A stretch of DNA of 64,000 nucleotides from Botryllus schlosseri (Eukaryota): positions 3,536,001 to 3,600,000 of the forward strand of contig CM119371.1 in NCBI GenBank assembly GCA_051294905.1. The letters run 5' to 3'. Numbering within the stretch: the first letter of the stretch is position 1; the number at the start of each line of letters is the position of its first letter. Positions 3,184 through 56,301 of the stretch are shown piece after piece. Under the pieces are notes generated by a model. The model was not told the DNA's origin. It did no database searches and saw nothing but the letters and a program-made list of their open reading frames with translations. The position numbers and the translations under genes were made by a program.

Positions 3184-5848
3184 AATATATGGTAGCTTCG
3201 TAAACGGATATGACAGGTTTGCAGTTATTGTGACTAGACTTGACTCGCGTCAATTTATAAAATATGGTGTATAACTCGACTCGATTTGCGGCAAGTTCCA
3301 ATAATATCGAACTTTACTTTTTCTGAGTTGCAATGAAACTCCGTTTCGGCTGCTTGAGTTTTGAGTTATGTGACTTGGTCGAGTCAAACCCAATGACTCG
3401 AGTCATATTCAGCATGTAAGAAATTGACTCTGGTCAAGTCGAGTCACCCACACTCGACGCATTTCTAGCTTCATATGTTTTCCAACTGTGCCACCTCGTG
3501 ACGTGCAGGTATCAGTAGGTTGTGTGTAACGTCGGGAGAAAAGGACAACTCCCAAAGCAGTCGCGCTTGGAACCATTTTGCGGGTACGTTTTCCACTCGT
3601 ACCACAATCTTGCTCATTTCGGTTTCGTATGATTCATCAACGCTGGCTGTCGTACTGACTTTGCCTTGAAACGGAAGTATAGTCGCCGGTGAGGAATATG
3701 TAGATCGAATGTTTTCTCCCCTTCTGCAACCCAGAATTTTGTCACGTTCTCTGTCTTTTCATGCGAGCGCTTGAATATTCCGACGACTTTTACTTGAAAC
3801 TTGGCGGTTTGGGTTCGATTTAACATAGTTTCATTTCCTGTATGTACCTTCTGCTTTGAGAGAAATTTCGCTTTACGCTGTCCTTTGATTTCGAGAGCTT
3901 CCCTAAAAGGTAGGAATTGGTTGTTTTGAACGGAAAAATAGCCCTCGCATCACAGTAACTTGATATATTTTCAAAAATAGCACTGATTATTGGGCTAGGC
4001 ACAATGTGCAAAGGACTCGCATCTGAAATCAGTATTTACTCTACCAATTTGAGTCAACTAGAGAAATTATTCCTCTCCTTACTAGTTGGGGTGTGCGAAA
4101 TCGACTACGTGAGCGATTCGATACTGAATCACATATTAGGCTTCGAGCCCAGTGGAGTATTCAAGTATCACTCATTATGACGAAATACCAGTATGTAAGA
4201 TGTCAAAGTTCATATATATACCTTCTACGCTACTACAAATAATATCATTTATCCACAATACCTATCTCATTGCACTTTGTGACAATGCTGTGGGTTTATG
4301 ATGACTTCAGAAATAGCTTTGTACTAGATGTTCCGTAGGCTCCGATACGGCCAGTCGAGGTTTCAATGCTCCCACAGCAGAAAATACCGCCGAAACTATA
4401 ATTCTCGTTATTCAATTACATTTCATTGGCAAGGAGCGTATAATATCAGCACTCCGAAAATTTCACTACTCGACTCAAATCAATAGATATCTTTATCGAA
4501 GCAGATTAGAATAATCACATCATTGTGCCCAGCCCTACTAACCAATATGTGTTAATTCATTAACTAAATTTATCGTTTCCCTCATATTTCCACTGTGGAA
4601 GCCTTGGAACTGTATTGGTCATTTAACAGTATAAGAAAGCTGTCGTACAAAACTACGTTAGCGGAAAGGAAATATCTGTAAACCCGCAGTATTTGCAATG
4701 AAATAGGCGTTGTCGACAAAAAAACACATTATTTTTAATATGACGTAGAGCTGGCAATATATTATTTGTGGTTGAATGAAAAGTACATATTTGCACTTTC
4801 CTCATGCCCCTATGATGTCATTAGTAAGTTGTTGACTACACGTCTAATATTCGATTCATGGTCAAATCACTCAGCCACTCGATTTTCACAACCCTATCAA
4901 TCAATACTACAAGGAGATTTGTCAGTGGTCATCAACTCTCACAGAACATCATGTTTCAATGATGAGTGACAGTATCGCAAAATCTATTTGGGTGGCCAAC
5001 AAGTTATAAATCACATTAAGAGCGTATTCTTTCACATACTATTTCAGGCTTCACTGAGTATAATATGATTGGCTGGTATGCAGACTTGTACAAGCTACCG
5101 ATCTAGTTAGTTGACGGTCAACTAACAACTGTTTTTTTGGATTAGTTATTGCTGTGGAATTTGAAAAGCGAGTAGATTTAGTTACAGTAGTACATTAAAC
5201 TAACTAGTTGCCAACAACTAGAAAACTCGCGTCATCGTTTGACGTGAATCTTGATCCCGGCGTTTTATTGTGTGATGTTCTTGCAGACATTTCTACCTCA
5301 GAGTTATCACTGCAGCTACTGGCGTGGCTAGGCTTTTAGCAGTTTACAGCCTCCCCATTTCAACTAGGACAAACTACTTCGTGAGGACAGACAGTTCCAA
5401 ACAGAAGTGAAGATAAGTAGTGCAATTCTAACGTTATGTGGGAAAGCACCTAGTTTGCATGATAGGTCAAATTTGTTCAAAATGAGGATTTTTTAGGTCA
5501 AAAATGTTAAAGTTTTGATTTTTTAGATCACAATCTTTGGTTTTTTAGGTAAAAGAATCACCCTAGTCATATCCATCCATGTCATCAAACTCTTCGCTGG
5601 GACTGCCAGCATTCTGATTGCATTTGTGACATGACGATAATGGGGGCGCGAAATTTTTCACTATCAAAAAGGGGGGCGTGTCAAAGAAAATTTGAGAACC
5701 GTTGTTCTAAATCTAATTGAAGTTGCGGGTTTTGCAAAGAGAGTACAGATTTCGGAAATCCAGTAGTTTGTTCAAGTCTGGGTACAGCACCTGAATAGTG
5801 GTTTAAAAGTACGGTAAGCATGAACGAGTCTACCAACGTTTTCCTTAC

Positions 5849-11244: not shown

Positions 11245-12325
11245 CAGTAAATGATTGAGACTTCTGCTGTATGAGTCTGGTTCAGAATGACTTGGACAAC
11301 TAAATAATTCTTGTTGTTTGATTTCACTAATTGTAGGAAAATGTCGGTAATATAATTCTAACATAATTAGATTAATTATTCTTTGCTGTAATTCTAATCC
11401 AATTTCTTAATTCTAATGTATTTTCTGGTTCATCCAGAATTGCTACAGGAGAACTGTACCGTGCAAAACGAGTCGATAATAGTGTGCAGAGATTTGTCAG
11501 CGTCATGCTTATGAGAATAAGGTCAGAAATGATATGAACTGGACTTCATACCATGTACAAGCTTTTGCAAATTGAGTAATTCTAATTACAATCCAATTTG
11601 GTAAAACTGTGTAACTATGTAACTTGAAGTCTGGTCTTATTTGAAAAAAAAGGTCCAGTTATAATTCGAATTCTAGTCTAATTTGGAGAAGAAAAAAAAT
11701 GTGCAGCTGCAACTCTAATTCTAATCTAATTTCGAAAACCTGAAAATCATGTAGTTGTCCAAGTCTGGCTCATAAAACCCCTGGGGTAATCGTATGAGCC
11801 CTGGTTAGTAGGCACCGCTCCAAGGTAAAATACAAAGCATGCAATCAGTTGTGATTCTGACTTTGTACCGTTCACACTTCTAGGAAGATTGTCATAATAA
11901 AGTCAAGTTGCAGAGAGACATTACGATATTTTCTGTTTGGGCCGTTTTGCATTGTTGATCTTTTAACGTTTCTTCCATTCTATTGCGTTGAGACCTTTCG
12001 CGGCTCGCGTTCCTACACAAAAAAAAACACAGCCGGTCAGTGTCGTCAGCATTGCAATTTACTGCAAGTGTTAATCGGATGTGGCTACTTTCGAAGTAGA
12101 TTCTCGATTAGAGCAAAATGATTCACACAAGACACAGGAAGAATATTGGAAACCATTTTCAACTACAACGACACAGGGGACTGTAACTCGGTAAAATAGG
12201 TGTTTAACCTATCTCAAAACTACTCTGTAGTTTTCAAAATCAAAATGCAAAAGTAAGTACCGTAGTTTGGTTGTTAAGTAGAAATGGAAGTAGTCATAAC
12301 ATAACCAATTTAATTAGTTCCGGTA

Positions 12326-12751
12326 CAGAGATGAGCATGGATTAGGATTAGGTTTTGAAAAAACAGGATTTGTGAAATTTTCTTGGATTTGGATTGGATT
12401 TGGATTATACATTTTTTTCAGAACGGATTAGGATTTGGACTGGATTGACATATTTTCTTGGAGATTGAAATGTTGTGTGGCGAATGGCGACAAACTTTAT
12501 TCAGATCAGTTATTAATGTACTTAAGGTTACTAGGTTATCTTGAATCTAGTGAATAGTTGGTTGTGAAAGAAAATTATCGAATCCCTCCATTGCATAAAT
12601 TAGTATTTTTCTGAATTTCCAGTTGGAATCGGATTAGGATTAGACATGGACTTGAATGTGTAAAATTGATGGATTAGAATTTGGATATGGATTTGAAGGT
12701 TCGGATTTGGATTGGATTAGGACATAGAAATTTCAAATCCGCTCATCTCTG
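12326..12751. mobile_element. hAT-type MITE with GGATTW microrepeats
   Basis: TIR CAGAGATGAGC / GCTCATCTCTG. Flanking direct repeat TCCGGTA. Many GGATT(T/A) units inside. Confidence 0.7.
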
Positions 12752-13095
12752 TCCGGTATACTAAGCAAAATATACTAAAAATTTTAGGAATCAAAATGGA
12801 GTCAAATGCCATCCAAGCGGGAAGCAGTAATCTTCACAGCAAACAAAAACTTCATGTTCACTGAAAATGAGCTTTTAAAGTTGGTATGTAATAGTTGTAA
12901 ATATCAGCTAAAATAGTTGAGAATCACTGGGTGACATGAACTCAAACGGGAACTGTACCGCTCGGATACTATGATGATTAATTATGATAAAAATGTAGGA
13001 GAGTGGGTCTTGGATATAAATGTGTTACATGATACCATGCCATAGACTGCAGGTCTGTCAGATATAATACTATTTTATACATCGATACGCTAGTG

Positions 13096-46100: not shown

Positions 46101-48840
46101 AAAGTACTAGACATGATTCAAATTCATTACTAGGGCGATTTTATTTGACACTTCAAAAGAAGTCAAATTTTGTTTTACATGGTGAGTTTGATTTATTTAG
46201 CTGTTCTTGTGTAAATCACACTAACATGTAACTTAGTTACTCCCGCCATTTACCGGCTTCAAAAATCTAGTATTTTTCGGCTGTAACTCGTTTTGTGTTC
46301 ACAATAGACAAACCTTGCTTCTAAGACAGAGAGAAACATGATGTTTTCGCATGACCCTACGACCAGTGGTTGTCGAGATGAGCAATTTCACCCCCTCTCG
46401 CGCAGAAATTGGGGGGATGCTGGCTGAAAAATAAAGGCAATCCCCTAAAACCAACTTTTATTGAAGTTTCAAGTCATTTTTCTGGACTTAAGAATCCCCT
46501 TTTTTCGATTTGAAAAAAAGTCATTTTCACTCCACCCTACAACATTTCAGCATTTAACGACAAATGACAATACATATCCTCGCATCTTCACCAAGTCTAC
46601 CTACCTCTAATTTAAATCAAGTTCTGACACATGAAACAATTGTCTGGCATTTATCCTGATTGCTACACAACCTTTGTCAAATTGTACGCATTCGCGTAAA
46701 ATACATTGTCTCTCCATATTCTGATTTAACCCAAATAAAATGCAAGGCCCCAGCAAACACAAAACCGTAAAAGGATCATCCGGGATCATCTCGATTAGGT
46801 TCTGATTTTCTAAGTGTCGAGGGAATGTCTAAAATACGTAGTAGGATGGTCTTGTGGTTATATTCAATCAGAATAAATTCATACTAGGTGTTGTTCCATC
46901 TCATGCATTAGGCTTCGTTATATCCGGTAGTTAACCTAATAATGCAAATTTTCTATCTCTCGCGGGTACGACTAAAATACGTAGAAAGGATGACTTTGTC
47001 GGTACATTCAATCACGATGAATTCTATCCGGTTTTGTTCGATCTCATGCGGTAGCTTCGTTCTATCCATTAGAAAACAATGTTCTCCCTTCGTTTTATTG
47101 CGTGAGGATGTCACCGGTGTTGTATATTCGTGTTGTTGCTCTAAGGTCGAATAGTTTTGTTTTCCTCTGATATATATGATCTTCATTATATATATATTCG
47201 CTCTTTCGGTAATCTCGCATGTTCAACGAGTATGGTTAATAGTTTTATTCAGAGAATAACTAAATAAGTGATATGTTGTACGTTTAGGAATATGATTATC
47301 GATGCGTGACTTCTAGAATATTTCGGCGATTCAAATTTTAAGTCATCGCGCCATACAAAGATTTGACGCGCAACAGGTCGCAGCCAGGCATAGTTCGCTC
47401 TTTCTGTATGGTAAATGCCGTAAATATATAGGAATTGTGACTGACTGAGGTAGCGGGTTAAAGGTATATATGCAGTAGCATATAGCTTATGGGGTATTTC
47501 GAATTGCCTGTAGTATATGACGCCTAGAGCTGTTTGACTTTCTGCAAAACAGGTGTAGACAACTATAGAAAAGTTTCAGCTTTTCCAGGTTAGAATTAGA
47601 GCTAAACCGTTTTTCCGAATTAGATTACAATTATATTGCTGGCATTTCGCTCTAATTTAGTGAAATTAGACCACTATAATTCGCTTCAAACATCTGAATT
47701 ACCGGTACCTATACCTACGGTATATCATAATATTTATGCCTGAATTTTCTAGGTATATAAGTCATATAGATACATACCTGTAGAACACTGATTCATGATT
47801 TTATAAAAGTTGGTGCAAGAATGGACATTTTCAACTTGATGTTGATTAATGGAGCAAAATTTGATATTTGAGTGCAATTATACCTCGAATCCAGTGACAA
47901 GATTATTAATCGTTGAAACCAAACGCAGCTTGATTATGTTGGCCCAGAGAATTTGGCTAGCCAGACCATATTGATGGAATATGGTCACAGTAAGATAATA
48001 TTTTGGGCTATTTTACATGAACTTTCCAACATTTGATTTGATATGTCCACTAAAACAGTTGTTATTCTGCTTTCGAATAAGACCTTAATTGCTGGTTTCA
48101 ATGGTAACTGTGTTTGTCAAAGGCTGCAAAGGTAATTTCTTTTCCATGTTAGATGTTTATTTGTTTGTTTGTGGTGTTCATGGTGGTGGTTCGACTACAC
48201 TGGTCATTTTACACCAGGCCGGTTCTTATTATTATTATTCCGTATCTGCCCGATTACCAGTGAACTCGGCACTTAGTGAATTCGGCCGCACAAACTCGGC
48301 ACTTGGAGAATTCGGGTCAAGTGTAGAATCCGGGCAGTGTTCCCCATGACCACCACCGATCAGTGTTGCACCTGAAACTGTCGGAATTCATAGTGCTTCA
48401 CGTAGTTACCGACTATGCTCCCCACTAAACCCTATAAATACTGTCAAGGTTCCATATTATATCTTATCATATTATTATATCTTGAATTCACAGATACACA
48501 TGCCGGTGACGAGCAAGATTACATTTTACATCGCTCGCTCGCATGCCAGATGAACGGCTTGTACAAGAAATCGAAGGAAAGGGGAAAGGAAGCGACTTAC
48601 TCCAATCTCTTCACCACATTATGTATTGTGTATCGCATTTTTATCGAAAATTTAGAAAATAAAACGTATGACGCCTATACTATCAAGTGTATCTAGTGTA
48701 CTTTGCGGCCACTAAACTCATGTACGGACACTTGCAAGATGTGGGGAGATGGTGAAGGTTTATCTGGGCTCCTCTTCACCCGCGCCGTTGCCCAGAAAAG
48801 ACCCGACGTAAGAAAGCACTCATGTATAAGAAACCCCCAT

Positions 48841-50776
48841 AGTCGTGTATGGTATCTAGTGTACTTTTCAGCCACAATACTTATGTGAAGACACTCGCAT
48901 AGTCGCGTATCATACCAAGTGTACTTTCCAGCCACAATAGTTATGTACAGACACTCGCATAGTAGGGTATGATACCAAGTGTACTTTTCAGCCACAAGAC
49001 TTATGTGAAGACACTCGCATAGACGCGTATCATACCAAGTGTACTTTCCAGCCACAAGACTTATGTGAAGACACTCGCATAGTCGCGTATCATACCAAGT
49101 GCACTTTTCAGCCACAATACTTATGTGAAGACACTCGCATAGTCGCGTATCATACCAAGTGTACTTTACAGCCACAAGACTTATGTGAAGACACTCGCAT
49201 AGTCGCGTATCATACCAAGTGCACTTTTCAGCCACAATACTTATGTGAAGACACTCGCATAGTCGCGTATCATACCAAGTGCACTTTTCAGCCACAATAC
49301 TTATGTGAAGACACTCGCATAGTCGCGTATCATACCAAGTGTACTTTACAGCCACAAGACTTATGTGAAGACACTCGCATAGTCGCGTATCATACCAAGT
49401 GCACTTTTCAGCCACAATACTTATGTGAAGACACTCGCATAGTCGCGTATCATACCAAGTGTACTTTCCAGCCACAATAGTTATGTACAGACACTCGCAT
49501 AGTCGCGTATCATACCAAGTGTACTTTTCAGCCACAAGACTTATGTGAAGACACTCGCATAGTCGCGTATCATACCAAGTGCACTTTTCAGCCACAATAC
49601 TTATGTGAAGACACTCGCATAGTCGCGTATCATACCAAGTGCACTTTTCAGCCACAATACTTATGTGAAGACACTCGCATAGTCGCGTATCATACCAAGT
49701 GTACTTTACAGCCACAAGACTTATGTGAAGACACTCGCATAGTCGCGTATCATACCAAGTGTACTTTTCAGCCACAAGACTTATGTGGAGACACTCGCAT
49801 AGTCGCGTATCATACCAAGTGTACTTTCCAGCCACAATAGTTATGTACAGACACTCGCATAGTAGGGTATGATACCAAGTGTACTTTTCAGCCACAAGAC
49901 TTATGTGAAGACACTCGCATAGTCGCGTATCATACCAAGTGTACTTTCCAGCCACAATAGTTATGTACAGACACTCGCATAGTAGGGTATGATACCAAGT
50001 GTACTTTTCAGCCACAAGACTTATGTGAAGACACTCGCATAGTCGCGTATGATACCAAGTGTACTTTTCAGCCACAAGACTCATGTGAAGACACTCGCAT
50101 AGTCGCGTATCATACCAAGTGCACTTTTCAGCCACAATACTTATGTGAAGACACTCGCATAGTCGCGTATCATACCAAGTGCACTTTTCAGCCACAATAC
50201 TTATGTGAAGACACTCGCATAGTCGCGTATCATACCAAGTGTACTTTCCAGCCACAATAGTTATGTACAGACACTCGCATAGTAGGGTATGATACCAAGT
50301 GTACTTTTCAGCCACAAGACTTATGTGAAGACACTCGCATAGTCGCGTATCATACCAAGTGTACTTTCCAGCCACAATAGTTATGTACAGACACTCGCAT
50401 AGTAGGGTATGATACCAAGTGTACTTTTCAGCCACAAGACTTATGTGAAGACACTCGCATAGTCGCGTATGATACCAAGTGTACTTTTCAGCCACAATAC
50501 TTATGTGAAGACACTCGCATAGTCGCGTATCATACCAAGTGTACTTTCCAGCCACAATAGTTATGTACAGACACTCGCATAGTAGGGTATGATACCAAGT
50601 GTACTTTTCAGCCACAAGACTTATGTGAAGACACTCGCATAGTCGCGTATCATACCAAGTGTACTTTCCAGCCACAATAGTTATGTACAGACACTCGCAT
50701 AGTAGGGTATGATACCAAGTGTACTTTACAGCCACAATACTTATGTGAAGACACTCGCATAGTCGCGTATCATACC
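48841..50776. repeat. 60-bp minisatellite, ~32 units (left arm)
   Basis: Exact 60-bp periodicity. Consensus AGTCGCGTATCATACCAAGTGTACTTTTCAGCCACAAGACTTATGTGAAGACACTCGCAT with a few recurring variants. Confidence 0.98.
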
Positions 50777-51020
50777 TAGCGTTATTTTTTATTATTGTAT
50801 TATTACGTCATACTTTGCCTTTTTGGTTTTCGTTTGAATCTCTCTCTGTATGCTTATTATTGTGCCGTTAACTCTCGATAAGGGGCACACGAAAAGTCTT
50901 CGAGTTAATAAATTCTTTACTGCAATGAATGTAGTTGTGAAAGCAAAACTCAAGTTTAGTACCGCCAACCATATTTTCAAGCTACAAACTAATGGCTTTC
51001 TTGATATTTACCATTCACAG

Positions 51021-51934
51021 AAATGCTCGGATTTCATTAGCATCCGGCATGGCTCATTTTTTTACAAAAGTAATCTCACCCCGACGAAACTTTTGTACAT
51101 GGTGTACTTTTGGTCAAAGGACCATGACCAGGTAATGATTATCGACGAGCTTAAAATAAGCAACAGGACCTGCATCGACTGGTGCCAGTTTTTCAGGGAG
51201 GTATTGTCAAAATTCTATTGTAAAGTAAGGCACTCTATTTACTCTAAAGCTTTGTGGCAAATTCCAGATCTGCTCAGCCGATCTGTTAAGGGGTTCCGGC
51301 GTCATCGGTGGCCCGGGACATGTGGTGGCGATCGACGAATCGGTAATTGCCAAGAGGGGCCGTGGTGCCAACGCTCAGGCAAGACCGATTCCACAGCAAT
51401 GGATATTCGGAGGCGTGGACCTCATCACAAAGTTTGTGCATAGAAAATAAAAATCCAACGTCAGCAAAACTTTAAAAGTATATAATGTTTTATGCAGCCA
51501 ATGCTTTATGCGATTCGTCGATCGACGGGACGCAAACACCTTGCTGCCAATCATTCGGCAATACATTGCTCCGGGCACCGAAATTTGGTCGGATGAATGG
51601 GCAGCGTATCGGGGCATAACCGGTAAATGAAGTCTTATACAGCGATAATGGTGAATGTTAGTAAAACATTTCCGTTTCCTTATCAGGAATGGGCAACGGC
51701 TACACCCATAAAACAGTCTGCCACAAACACCTGTTTAAGACTCCCCAAGGTGTTCACACCAATAATATTGAGAGACTTTGGAGCGACTGTAAACGGAAGT
51801 TCAAGAGAATGAACGGCACGGTACGGGGGTTCGTACCCTCATACATCGATGAATGGATGTGGCGTCGGACCAGAGAAAGAGATCATTACTTTTCGGACAT
51901 TGTTCAGGAAATCGCCAGGCAATACCCAGTGTAA
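51021..51934 (+). CDS. Merlin (IS1595/ISXO2-like) DDE transposase, spliced, 5' exon(s) not identified
   Basis: Exons 51021-51200, 51268-51431, 51498-51622 and 51687-51934, joined by 67, 66 and 64-bp GT-AG introns, give one open frame: KCSDFISIRHGSFF...DWCQFFRE|ICSADL..IGGPGHVVAIDESVIAKR...WIFGGVD..|QCFMRFVDRRDANTLLPIIRQYIAPGTEIWSDEWAAYRGIT|GMGNGYTHKTVCH...GVHTNNIERLWSDCKR...YIDEWMWRR...YPV*. Catalytic D, D and E are present. Confidence 0.9.
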
Positions 51935-52159
51935 AATGAGCCCTTTAATTTATTGAGATTTGACTTCTCAGAATTATCTAGTTATCGAAGTGTGCCTGCA
52001 ATTTCGTAATTTCGTTTTTTTTTCTACATTTCGTTTCGTTTCTGTTTTGTTGATAAACGTGCTGCCATTGGCTATAGTTCGAGTCTATCTATATTTGACC
52101 GGACGTTGGAGTAGGAGTCAGGGTCAGGGCCATTTCTATAATATGCGAGTGTCTGTACA

Positions 52160-53416
52160 CAGAGGTGGTCAAGGTAGTCAAGAAAGCTACTCAAGTAGAT
52201 GTAGAAGTAGCGAAGCAAAAATCTACTCAAGTAGAAGTACTGATTTCATGAGCAGCATAAAACTAATTGAAGTAGAAGTAGAATTGACTGACTTTAAAAG
52301 TACTCAAGTAAGTAAATAGTTGTGAAAACGATCCTGATTGGATGGATTATCAAAAGTTGCAAATTGAGCTATGTGATATAGGTGACGAGCTTGATTCATA
52401 TTGATGCATACCAGCAGGTATCCAATTTTCGATAGCATAAGCATTCGTCCACATCATGTAGTGAAAATGATAGTATTGATAAGGAAATGCGATACTAATC
52501 CTCTGTGTTCTCGAACAACGCGTTTTGGAAAATAGCATGGTATGGCGCCTTCCCCCTATAAGGCCCGTAGTTTAGTCGAAGTGCAATATGGATAAGTTGT
52601 ATAGGATACGGTGTAAACAGTTTGCGCGATTTGTAAACGTTAACAAAAAATATCGTGAACCGTAAAAATGCCATATTGTGTAGCTATATTTCCAGAATTT
52701 AAAGGCATTACTGCACTTGCTTTTATACTTCAACATGTATGTTATTCGGACAAAAGAACTGATATTAATTATAACTCAAAGTAGGCTATATGATACTGAG
52801 AATTGAAAGTGAAATATAAATACTGTTTCTGAAAGCAGAATATATATTTCATGTTTTTAGTCCAGTAAGTTTCAAGGGTGGTATGCTAAAACACTTTTCC
52901 AGGACATGCCATGGACATATATATGCTAGATTACGATATGACAAGAAAATGCTAGATTGCGAAACATCAGTTTCAAACGTTATGATGAGCCATATACTGT
53001 GATGAATTATTTCATGGGTGATGGGCAACAATGTGGTGTGAACGGAACCACTCCAACCCTCCACTTAAATTATATTCACCGATACTTTCGTGAAATCATA
53101 CTGGTCACACCGTATCCACTGCGCGCGAAGCGCGACGAAAATTCTGTGCTTTACTAAACTTTTATGAAAATTAAATGTTGATACTCCGTGAAAACAGCTC
53201 CGAAATTCCTCAGGCTATCTTCCTGATTGGAAGATTGAACTACTTCTACTTGACAAACTGAAAATAGCGAAAAGTAAGTAAGTATATCACAAAATATTAA
53301 GAAGTAGAAGTATAGGTAGCGAAAATCAGATCTACTTGAGTAAGTACCAGAAGTAGACGAAAACTACTTGAGTACTTCGAAAAAGTAGAAATACTTCGAT
53401 ACTATAACCACCTCTG
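52160..53416. mobile_element. hAT-type element inserted in the innermost unit of the Merlin right array
   Basis: TIR CAGAGGTGGT / ACCACCTCTG. Perfect TSD TCTGTACA at 52152-52159 and 53417-53424. AAGTAG subterminal repeats. A related end at ~62711. Confidence 0.9.
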
Positions 53417-54307
53417 TCTGTACATAAGTATCGTGGCTGAAAAGTACACTTGGTATCATACCCTGCTATGCGAGTGTCTGTACATAACTATTGTGGCTGG
53501 AAAGTACACTTGGTATGATACGCGACTATGCGAGTGTCTTCACATAAGTCTTGTGGCTGAAAAGTACACTTGGTATCATACCCTACTATGCGAGTGTCTG
53601 TACATAACTATTGTGGCTGGAAAGTACACTTGGTATGATACGCGACTATGCGAGTGTCTCCACATAAGTCTTGTGGCTGAAAAGTACACTTGGTATGATA
53701 CGCGACTATGCGAGTGTCTTCACATAAGTCTTGTGGCTGTAAAGTACACTTGGTATGATACGCGACTATGCGAGTGTCTTCACATAAGTATTGTGGCTGA
53801 AAAGTGCACTTGGTATGATACGCGACTATGCGAGTGTCTTCACATAAGTCTTGTGGCTGAAAAGTACACTTGGTATCATACCCTACTATGCGAGTGTCTG
53901 TACATAACTATTGTGGCTGGAAAGTACACTTGGTATGATACGCGACTATGCGAGTGTCTCCACATAAGTCTTGTGGCTGAAAAGTACACTTGGTATGATA
54001 CGCGACTATGCGAGTGTCTTCACATAAGTCTTGTGGCTGAAAAGTACACTTGGTATCATACCCTACTATGCGAGTGTCTGTACATAACTATTGTGGCTGG
54101 AAAGTACACTTGGTATGATACGCGTCTATGCGAGTGTCTTCACATAAGTCTTGTGGCTGAAAAGTACACTTGGTATCATACCCTACTATGCGAGTGTCTG
54201 TACATAACTATTGTGGCTGGAAAGTACACTTGGTATGATACGCGACTATGCGAGAGTCTTCACATAAGTATTGTGGCTGAAAAGTACACTAGATACCATA
54301 CACGACT
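53417..54307. repeat. 60-bp minisatellite, ~15 units (right arm, inverted relative to left)
   Basis: Reverse complement of the 48841-50776 unit. A partial first unit lies at 52143-52159, before the hAT insertion. Confidence 0.98.
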
Positions 54308-56301
54308 ATGGGGGTTTCTTATACATGAGTGCTTTCTTACGTCGGGTCTTTTCTGGGCAACGGCGCGGGTGAAGAGGAGCCCAGATAAACCTTCACCATC
54401 TCCCCACATCTTGCAAGTGTCCGTACATGAGTTTAGTGGCCGCAAAGTACACTAGATACACTTGATAGTATAGGCGTCATACGTTTTATTTTTTAAATTT
54501 TCGATAAAAATGCGATACACAATACATAATGTGGTGAAGAGATTGGAGTAAGTCGCTTCCTTTCCCCTTTCCTTCGATTTCTTGTACAAGCCGTTCATCT
54601 GGCATGCGAGCGAGCGATGTAAAATGTAATCTTGCTCGTCACCGGCATGTGTATCTGTGAATTCAAGATATAATAATATGATAAGATATAATATGGAACC
54701 TTGACAGTATTTATAGGGTTTAGTGGGGAGCATAGTCGGTAACTACGTGAAGCACTATGAATTCCGACAGTTTCAGGTGCAACACTGATCGGTGGTGGTC
54801 ATGGGGAACACTGGCCGGATTCCACACTTGACCCGAGAATTCGGCCGTGGTAGATCTCGTAGCGGTACCGGTCACCATGATTGGTTACTGTAATGTTTGC
54901 CGGTGAACTTGGCACTTTGAGTGGTTGTCAATGTTGTACGGGGGTCAGGGCATGCGTAGATCACACAGTCACGGCGTGATTAGATCACAGATTGCGTAAT
55001 TGCGGGAAATAACGCAACGCTCTTCACTTGGTGAACTCGGCCCTTGGAGGAATTGGCACTAGAACACCTTCGCATTAGAAATGCATTTAGTATGAATGAA
55101 CAGTATCAAAAAGGAAATTTAAACGTGTCGTGGCTCGTGGTAGATCTCGTAATCTTGGGATCCTTCAACCGTGTTATCGAGACACCCTAATCCCAGAGTG
55201 GAATCGTCTCTCCAAAGGCAAAAAATAATTTATTTTGACGTGATCATGCGAAACATTTGTTGATGAGGAACACTGGCTTGTCGTGATCGATAAACGAAGA
55301 AGCGCCGCTTGATGTTCCACAGTTTTGATCTCACATACAACGCCAAGATCCATCTTCTCAAAACTTACACGACACAGGCCCGTGACTCACGCCATCGATT
55401 CCAAGCAGATCGCGCGTGGTCGGCATATGAGCGCTGTGTTATTTCCCGTGTTTACGCAATCCGTGATCTAATCACGCCGTGACTGCGCGATCTACGGATG
55501 CCCTGACCTCCTTACAAGATTGACGAATCACTTGATAATACTATTATTAGTTTGATAATTCATATTAATAGCTGTAAATACACTTCATTTCAAAATTTCC
55601 CGAGGGCCGAATTCACCAAGTGCCGAGTTTGTGCGGCCGAATTCACCAAGTGCCGGGTGCATCGGCAACCATCTGCCCACTTACAGCACGGCCCACTCCT
55701 AGGCTTTTTAAGACATGGCTATGCGAATCAGATGGCGAGGAGGAGCCTAGATAAACGGCCAACACTTCGGTAGGAATTATGGAGTAGACGTGTCAGGCTC
55801 GAACCCGCAATTCATTGGTGTTTAGCTATAATGGAACGTACCACTACGTTTCCTCGCCATACCTTGTAAAATGAGACCGTAGCATTTGGCATTTCGTGTG
55901 GCAATTGACTTTTGTGTGGAAAATTGTGTTCGTCTTAGAACTTATCCGAAACTTTTATTCCGCCATAGATTGTATATGATAAAACGATATCGGAATTGAT
56001 CCTAGAAGAATTCCAAAGCAACTCACCACAAAGGAGGATTTAAAGAAGTTTGATGGAAAATTGAATGAAAGCAAAAGCCTTTGCAAGAGATGTGGTATGT
56101 TGAATCTGTTTTGGTATTTTTAAATAGGCCTACTTTGTTGTGCCGATAGCAGACGGTATATATAAACGTAAGATGTGGAAGCTATCAAGGTGTTTTTAGA
56201 AATTCAGTCAGTCAAAGTGGACGATCGTATTGCTTGGATTATATTTAGGCTTATTTTAGCATCTTTGAGATGCAACTCTGAACGTGAACGGTCATGAACA
56301 G

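Follow-up and report, generated by a model that had tools for sequence, protein, structure and literature searches.

Merlin transposons are characterised in the introduction of Lopes et al. 2021 (PMC8101967, citing Feschotte 2004) by terminal inverted repeats (TIRs) of 24-462 bp, 5'-GG termini and target-site duplications (TSDs) of 8-9 bp. The same paper calls "internal tandem repeats" in Merlin a new observation, its main text contains 0 occurrences of "foldback", and its supplementary table (file 5) lists the Repbase elements Merlin-1_DR and Merlin-N5_DR with TIRs of 1000 bp and tandem repeats in both ends (44 bp x4; 113 bp x5.2 at 531-1114 and 3193-3775), Merlin-2_DR with 79-bp arrays at mirrored positions (x12.5 at 847-1832 and x9.7 at 12117-12880), and small C. 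briggsae Merlins whose TIRs are mostly short tandem repeats. Long, internally repetitive, Foldback-like TIRs are reported for Galileo, a P-superfamily element of Drosophila that moves by cut-and-paste with an aspartate-aspartate-glutamate (DDE) transposase (PMC3688188, PMC3573991, PMC4168063) and has multiple transposase (THAP) binding sites in those TIRs (PMC3688188); according to the Galileo abstracts, palindromes of this kind drive inversions and deletions elsewhere. Here we describe a Merlin element at positions 48314-54834 of a 64-kb window, the whole stretch of Botryllus schlosseri DNA that was analysed (64,000 nucleotides; assembly GCA_051294905.1, contig CM119371.1, positions 3,536,001 to 3,600,000), which we read with high confidence as a defective, probably non-autonomous copy of a small cut-and-paste Merlin (IS1595-like DDE) family with foldback arms. 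An earlier note on this DNA had put Merlin TIRs at no more than a few hundred base pairs, which the two 1000-bp entries in the table contradict, and had named an already catalogued architecture as grounds for refutation, which in part is the case, through zebrafish Merlins with tandem repeats in both ends. Coordinates below are positions of the window, with strand where one applies; C-numbers denote sequences and L-numbers loci of the same 495-Mb genome.

The limits of the element could be set by comparison with unoccupied copies of its target. A perfect 8-bp TSD, GAGAATTC, lies on both sides (48306-48313 on the left and 54835-54842 on the right, both read from the sequence), and the termini of the window copy read GGGTCAAG... 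and ...CTTGACCC, starting with 5'-GG. The Merlin is nested in a very young and abundant repeat (window 47714-48313 and 54843-55134; L064-L066). Of 1779 first-look candidates for this host repeat, at least 40 were scored as copies with 99% identity over 600 bp, and it is its youth and abundance that made an empty-site test possible. The three paralogous copies examined (L064-L066) are all uninterrupted at the target, with a single G(T)GAATTC there, and their flanks are identical to those of the window at 298-299/300 and 288/292 positions. Such unbroken empty sites fix the element exactly at 48314-54834 and its target duplication at exactly 8 bp, in agreement with the perfect TSD and GG termini that the earlier note had read from the letters.

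Between these limits, the window copy shows the design of the whole family, in which each end consists of a unique segment of ~0.4-0.75 kb followed by a tandem array of 60-bp units. On the left, a 527-bp unique arm (48314-48840, + strand, from the sequence and genome comparison) has the terminus GGGTCAAGTGTAGAAT and a degenerate 60-bp unit at arm positions 376-423, and is followed by a 60-bp minisatellite array (48838-50776, +) of 32.3 copies with 91% matches by Tandem Repeats Finder (TRF) and 32 units by unit walk. On the right, a 527-bp unique arm (54308-54834, - strand) is 99.4% identical to the left one and adjoins an array inverted relative to the left array (53415-54310, -; TRF 14.9 copies, 89% matches, with an inverted-repeat search and unit walk in support). 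The right array has its true start at ~52143, where an innermost partial unit (52143-52159, -, read from the sequence) is cut off from the rest by a 1257-bp nested element (52160-53416). The 527-bp unique ends and inverted 60-bp arrays of the earlier note (32.3 and 14.9 units by TRF) are thus retained, and its right array is corrected to one that begins farther inward and is split by a later insertion. Overall, the arms of this copy measure 1.4-2.5 kb. The inverted-repeat search returned 1422-nt arms that are 96% complementary, a value that reflects general unit similarity; we considered and rejected the idea that one arm is a strict mirror copy of the other, as unit-variant order agrees only in the outer three units.

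The foldback design recurs across the genome. Using the 527-bp arm as query, we obtained 54 matches, from which 20 loci and one extension were taken. All 15 two-ended copies have perfect 8-bp TSDs, all of them different (two further loci, L043 and L044, show one end only), GGGTCAAGTGTAGAAT stands at both ends in 13/13 copies inspected, and inverted tandem arrays were found in all 13 copies run through TRF. Foldback-type arms are present in all 15 TSD-flanked copies, so the arms are no artefact of a single locus, and the foldback-type Merlin family proposed earlier is borne out; recent mobility, also proposed, is upheld by the unique arms of different loci (window, L031 and L032), which are 98.9-99.8% identical. 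Unit counts by copy (left/right) were 5/5, 12/11, 32/15, 29/18, 32/18, 25/15, 33/42, 39/33 and 26/13. One third of the two-ended copies (5/15) have no coding centre and consist of two abutting inverted arrays: L031 (1704 bp, 5.5 / 4.8 units, arrays only ~35 bp apart), L032 (12 / 11.5), L035 (31.8 / 19.3), L036 (23.6 / 14.1) and L037 (5850 bp, 32 / about 41). Compared without gaps to its own mirror image, L037 is 96.4% identical over 2640 nt and L041 100% identical over 1260 nt. L031, folded as single-stranded DNA, forms one hairpin of -1048 kcal/mol (-173 to -196 for 5 dinucleotide shuffles) in which 812/834 pairs join mirror positions.

Other members of the family hold a complete gene between such arms. 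L041 (7196 bp, TSD CACTGATT) combines an intact gene with 100%-identical mirrored arm segments of ~1.26 kb and has a diverged unit type, and L038 (C14:5127645-5138001, 10,357 bp, with array matches spanning ~4.1 kb on one side) and L039 (C6:16543664-16551976, 8313 bp) are chimeras in which window-type 60-bp arrays accompany an intact gene of the L041 type, with a few units of that type on its flanks. Each of the three carries five exons and encodes 303 aa with no stops; the predicted transposase has an N-terminal CxxC...CxxC zinc ribbon, a helix-rich region and a D-D-E core. On L041, PF12762 (DDE_Tnp_IS1595) scored 29.6 and 29.9 bits on exons 4 and 5, and 56.5 bits (4.1e-15) on the read-through open reading frame (ORF). 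L038 and L039 also hold a 99% fragment of the window-type 3' end of the coding sequence (CDS) plus 208-bp 3' region, and as mosaics they point to recombination between subtypes. Window and L041 arms agree at 84% over their outer ~350 bp (89% for L039), though third codon positions of the transposases differ at 53%, and the ends would accordingly be either constrained or exchanged between subtypes. Two further short copies, L049 (C2:3903541-3904192, 652 bp) and L050 (C2:10656745-10657718, 974 bp), share only the outer arm (88-126 bp) and have perfect 8-bp TSDs; their inverted arrays consist of a 23-bp unit unrelated to the 60-bp one, so the building of arrays from different units is a recurrent event in the family. 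The 60-bp repeat was also considered as a free satellite and rejected as such, all 150 listed of 218 matches falling in 12 family loci.

The gene of the window copy is a Merlin transposase gene that has lost its beginning. With Pfam scans done exon by exon, PF12762 scored 32.6 bits on the third and 28.1 bits on the fourth exon predicted in the earlier note (gathering cut-off 27); it was the only significant Pfam family found, with no Mutator-like-element (MULE) or P/THAP transposase, and with the 8-bp TSDs and GG termini it secures the Merlin/IS1595 identity. The four exons (50925-51200, 51268-51431, 51498-51622 and 51687-51934) are all bordered by GT..AG and form a stop-free frame of 270 codons with the DDE residues, as claimed, except that the first 32 codons (50925-51020, +) are not transposase-derived: by the splice model and the alignment with relatives, they comprise a fortuitous in-frame ATG and sequence from a repeat, termed X here, and an intron tail. 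The remainder corresponds to exons 2 to 5 of the ancestral gene, all on the + strand: exon 2 (51021-51200; 60 codons with the last zinc-ribbon cysteine and the helix-rich region, homologous to L041 from residue 64 and conserved in its 180-nt length), exon 3 (51268-51431; first catalytic D, GAC 51334-51336, in the motif AIDES, placed by splice model and alignment), exon 4 (51498-51622; second catalytic D, GAT 51592-51594; PF12762 at 9.8e-8, and alignment) and exon 5 (51687-51934; catalytic E, GAG 51770-51772, and the stop codon; PF12762 at 2.4e-6, and alignment). A 208-bp 3' unique region follows (51935-52142, +), conserved at 97-99% in L034, L038 and L039.

We take these reading frames to be real because exon lengths are conserved, codon positions are biased and the catalytic residues are invariant. 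Exon lengths of 180/164/125 are the same in L041, at 80% amino-acid identity, and all three intron lengths differ; over 232 codons, window and L041 differ at 19%, 7% and 53% of codon positions 1, 2 and 3; and the columns of the catalytic D, D and E show no variation among five aligned sequences, which include two intronless Merlin-like ORFs of the genome (L062 and L063) and the database protein P0001, with a D2-E spacing of 37 residues. P0001, a 290-aa protein found by word-index search with exon 4, matches PF12762, as do both intronless ORFs; the word-index search with exon 1 alone gave no match. Such sparse results reflect the limits of short queries and are no sign that the protein is isolated. 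In about 6% of the bulk RNA-seq run X24, 0 reads fell on 51024-52103 and mean depth on 52104-52157 was 0.11, and the reads that did align fell only on foreign repeat pieces of the element, which indicates nothing either way on expression. The one long piece from run X1 (51111-51915, 803 letters) follows the genome without a break and retains the introns, and no spliced joint of the window gene was seen in any run compared with the element, these being short reads and contigs only.

What the window copy has lost is exon 1, which in its relatives spans 63 codons (MSSLVG...CPQC...WRCP). Three of the four cysteines of the zinc ribbon lie in this exon, and splicing to exon 2 (KC...) completes the CxxC...CxxC motif. 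By eye, the ribbon reads CPQC...CPKC in L041, L038 and L039 and is also kept in L062, L063 and P0001; a Pfam zinc-ribbon match was not found on the split L041 exons. The exon-1 peptide had no match across the whole 64-kb window at E<=10, homology of the window protein to L041 begins at residue 64 (position 51021), and no similarity of the window to its relatives was found upstream of ~50968-50980, leaving the window copy with no N-terminal ribbon ahead of its DDE core. In place of the upstream region, exon 1 and most of intron 1 stands a ~206-bp terminal fragment of the unrelated dispersed repeat X (50775-50980; homology limits 50775-50978/50981), with at least 40 scored genome copies at 94-99%, which directly adjoins the left 60-bp array. 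It is followed by a ~40-nt tail of ancestral intron 1 (~50980-51020, +; acceptor cacag|, 78% match to the end of L041 intron 1), and it is because of this succession that we regard the first 32 codons as foreign or intronic. The "intact frame" of the earlier note is therefore withdrawn, as the ancestral exon 1 of 63 codons is missing and foreign repeats sit at two places. Judged on sequence, the copy is a Merlin member by descent and an incomplete one, and with exon 1 gone and foreign repeats at two places, it is most likely non-autonomous.

Two observations concern repeat X itself and this junction. At L058 (of L058-L060), two inverted copies of this end of repeat X lie ~1.1 kb apart, so that the whole repeat is probably an element of ~1.5 kb with TIRs. 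A contig of run X1 extends from 51063 to 50980 and beyond that point has ~200 letters unlike the window; it has the same depth as the X1 contig described below that joins 52156 to array sequence, and the X1 contigs may mean that other individuals hold a less damaged copy.

The second foreign piece is the non-autonomous element of 1257 bp within the right array (52160-53416), with a TIR beginning CAGAGGTGGTCA and an 8-bp TSD TCTGTACA (left copy 52152-52159, within the innermost partial unit; second copy 53417-53424). Its family is abundant: 5436 first-look candidates yielded at least 40 scored copies in the genome, at 88-95%, and each of the four other full copies inspected (4/4) is flanked by an 8-bp TSD of its own. 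It is called hAT-like on its TSD and TIR only, hAT elements having 8-bp TSDs, short TIRs of the CAG.G type and, in autonomous members, a hAT transposase. The same nested insertion stands at the same offset from the 3' unique region in L034, and a nested copy is also present in L033; these two loci carry Merlin TSDs of their own, CAAATTCG and TATAGCTT respectively. Because L033 and L034 share the nested element and differ in TSD, the composite must still have transposed after nesting. One contig of run X1 joins 52156 straight to inverted array sequence, as a copy free of the nested element would, and hints at such a copy.

Coding the unit variants of the arrays in 442 units from 11 copies, we found that variant order differs between arms and between copies, outermost units excepted. 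Copies with unique arms 98.9-99.8% identical hold 5, 12 or 32 units, and for this reason arrays must change much faster than point substitutions accumulate. Within the unit, conservation is highest at positions 15-30 (ATACCAAGTGTACTTT, a 16-nt core), where the consensus sequences of the two diverged unit types do not differ, and the 8-mer CAAGTGTA inside this core equals terminus positions 5-12 in the same orientation. From this we infer that the arrays may be stacks of transposase-binding sites.

Three other explanations of the locus were weighed against the evidence above. It is quite unlikely that the element in the window is intact and autonomous, a foldback Merlin whose four exons form a working transposase: its 270-codon frame from ATG 50925 is stop-free with D/D/E kept, its arms are 99.4% identical and its TSD is perfect, but the three closest intact genes have an extra upstream exon (63 residues, three ribbon cysteines) that is found nowhere in the window, codons 1 to 32 of the frame stem from the tail of an intron and from a repeat unrelated to the gene, and two more distant Merlin-like ORFs and P0001 all retain the ribbon. 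The Merlin gene could also be a passenger, nested between foldback arms of another superfamily in the way that NOF sits inside Drosophila FB4. Absence of the gene from most copies would fit a passenger, as would the fact that the foldback elements used for comparison belong to other superfamilies; we nonetheless consider this very unlikely, as 8-bp TSDs and GG termini are the Merlin signature (PMC8101967, as summarised in its introduction), the gene stands between such arms in three arm/unit subtypes (the window, L041 and L038/L039), and no second set of family termini occurs inside these elements. A nested short-TIR Merlin around the gene was sought in L041, where no short inverted repeats bracket the gene and only array-derived and trivial pairs were found. 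Finally, mis-assembly of tandem repeats or chimeric palindromic reads might have created the arms and arrays, arrays of near-identical 60-bp units being hard to assemble and the structure being read from the assembly. This we hold to be extremely improbable given 15 loci of the same design with different TSDs, the exact empty-site match and an internal region that appears in contigs from several studies of the same organism; an artefact could alter unit counts only, not the architecture.

Our own reading, that of a defective and probably non-autonomous Merlin copy in a foldback-armed family, has points against it as well. The truncated 270-aa product from ATG 50925 may be made. An intact gene of the window's own subtype was not found among the genome matches: L034 is the only other copy with a 99% exon 4 and is without the first 404 nt of the CDS region, and other exon-4 matches (85-93%) are interrupted by a stop in frame, are partial or belong to the degraded copy L048. 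Mobilisation in trans would consequently have to cross subtypes whose transposases are 80% identical. The exon junctions are predictions from sequence, and array lengths are those of the assembly, no contig or short read having spanned an arm. As for the candidate binding sites, we roughly estimate at ~0.02 the chance expectation that an 8-mer is common to terminus and unit, and the 23-bp arrays of L049 and L050 are without the shared motif, so that arrays need not contain it.

If the window element is such a defective copy, the simplest history would have repeat X inserting into intron 1 and a later deletion, reaching as far as the array, removing exon 1 and the upstream region. The hAT-like element entered the right array at its innermost unit, in an ancestor that the window copy has in common with two others (L033 and L034), and the composite with its nested element went on transposing. 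The window copy may have been mobilised in trans by intact relatives, for which the genome offers three candidate helpers, two of them with the same 60-bp array type. Arrays would lengthen and shorten by unequal exchange or slippage, and pure foldbacks may form when the centre is lost, either as a hairpin is processed or as gap repair switches template.

Outside the foldback family, intronless IS1595/Merlin-like ORFs of ~315-340 aa are numerous in the genome, L062 and L063 among them. ORFs of 317 aa and 327 aa are paired 22-32 kb apart at at least 15 places (e.g., C10:14757536/14780081, C2:29722609/29698959 and C5:19580099/19555824), and may belong to a giant repeated element carrying both genes. 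L062 has further ORFs on the same strand, one resembling a leucine-rich-repeat protein, and no inverted repeat of >=18 nt was found within ~1-2.5 kb of the ORF in L062 or L063.

For annotation, the window copy is best recorded as a defective Merlin that contains pieces of two foreign repeats and is itself inserted in a further, young repeat, and its 270-codon ORF should not be called an intact transposase. For biology, the family displays a foldback-like architecture in Merlin in an extreme and well-populated form, with long inverted tandem-repeat arms and bare-palindrome copies, and a single genome holds the full series of autonomous, chimeric, truncated and pure-foldback copies. We tentatively suggest, at somewhat less than even confidence, that Merlin is a third DDE superfamily with true Foldback elements, after P (Galileo) and Mutator-like (FB, Tm1), and that this lineage is still active. 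We entertain this because intact five-exon genes lie between the arms, one pair of which is 100% mirrored over 1260 nt; because unit numbers change much faster than point substitutions; because the conserved 16-nt core may act as an amplified candidate transposase-binding site; and because arms may be swapped between subfamilies (outer ~350 bp at 84-89%; the L038/L039 mosaics). If this is true, the evolution of foldback arms could be tested in a natural series that runs from 5 to ~68 units. The family also lends itself to the question of whether such arrays are transposase-binding sites in stacks.

A published description of a foldback-type Merlin was not found in literature searches, with the Repbase and Dfam entries themselves outside the search. 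Judging by the entries in the supplementary table of PMC8101967, long and internally repetitive Merlin ends are already catalogued; the present case adds a family that is extreme and well populated, includes pure foldback derivatives and bears explicit comparison with Galileo and FB. The zebrafish elements Merlin-1_DR, Merlin-2_DR and Merlin-N5_DR, compared by table entries rather than sequences, are alike in superfamily, kb-scale ends and tandem repeats in both arms; relative to those entries, the arrays of this family are greater in length and vary more, with counts from 5 to ~42 units and, in L038, ~4.1 kb of array matches, and they make up most of the element, five copies consisting only of two abutting inverted arrays. 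Classical Merlins, as introduced in that paper, share the IS1595-type DDE transposase, 5'-GG termini and 8-9-bp TSDs, and differ in having TIRs of 24-462 bp rather than the 1.4-2.5-kb arms of the window copy, whose family also has a gene with four introns. Among elements of other superfamilies, the Drosophila Foldback and the Mutator-related foldback families Tm1 of Meloidogyne (PMC3169594) and Tetris of D. virilis (PMC4079207) are described as similar in their tandem-repeat arms and in the many copies that have no coding centre, whereas their transposase is different or unknown; unlike the repeat reported for Tetris, the 60-bp repeat here is not spread as a free satellite (among the 150 listed of 218 matches). 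Galileo, as described in the reports cited above, is alike in its DDE cut-and-paste mode and its long repetitive TIRs, and its THAP sites parallel the binding-site reading of the arrays here. Its transposase is of the P rather than the IS1595-like type, and the likeness is architectural only, with homology not expected.

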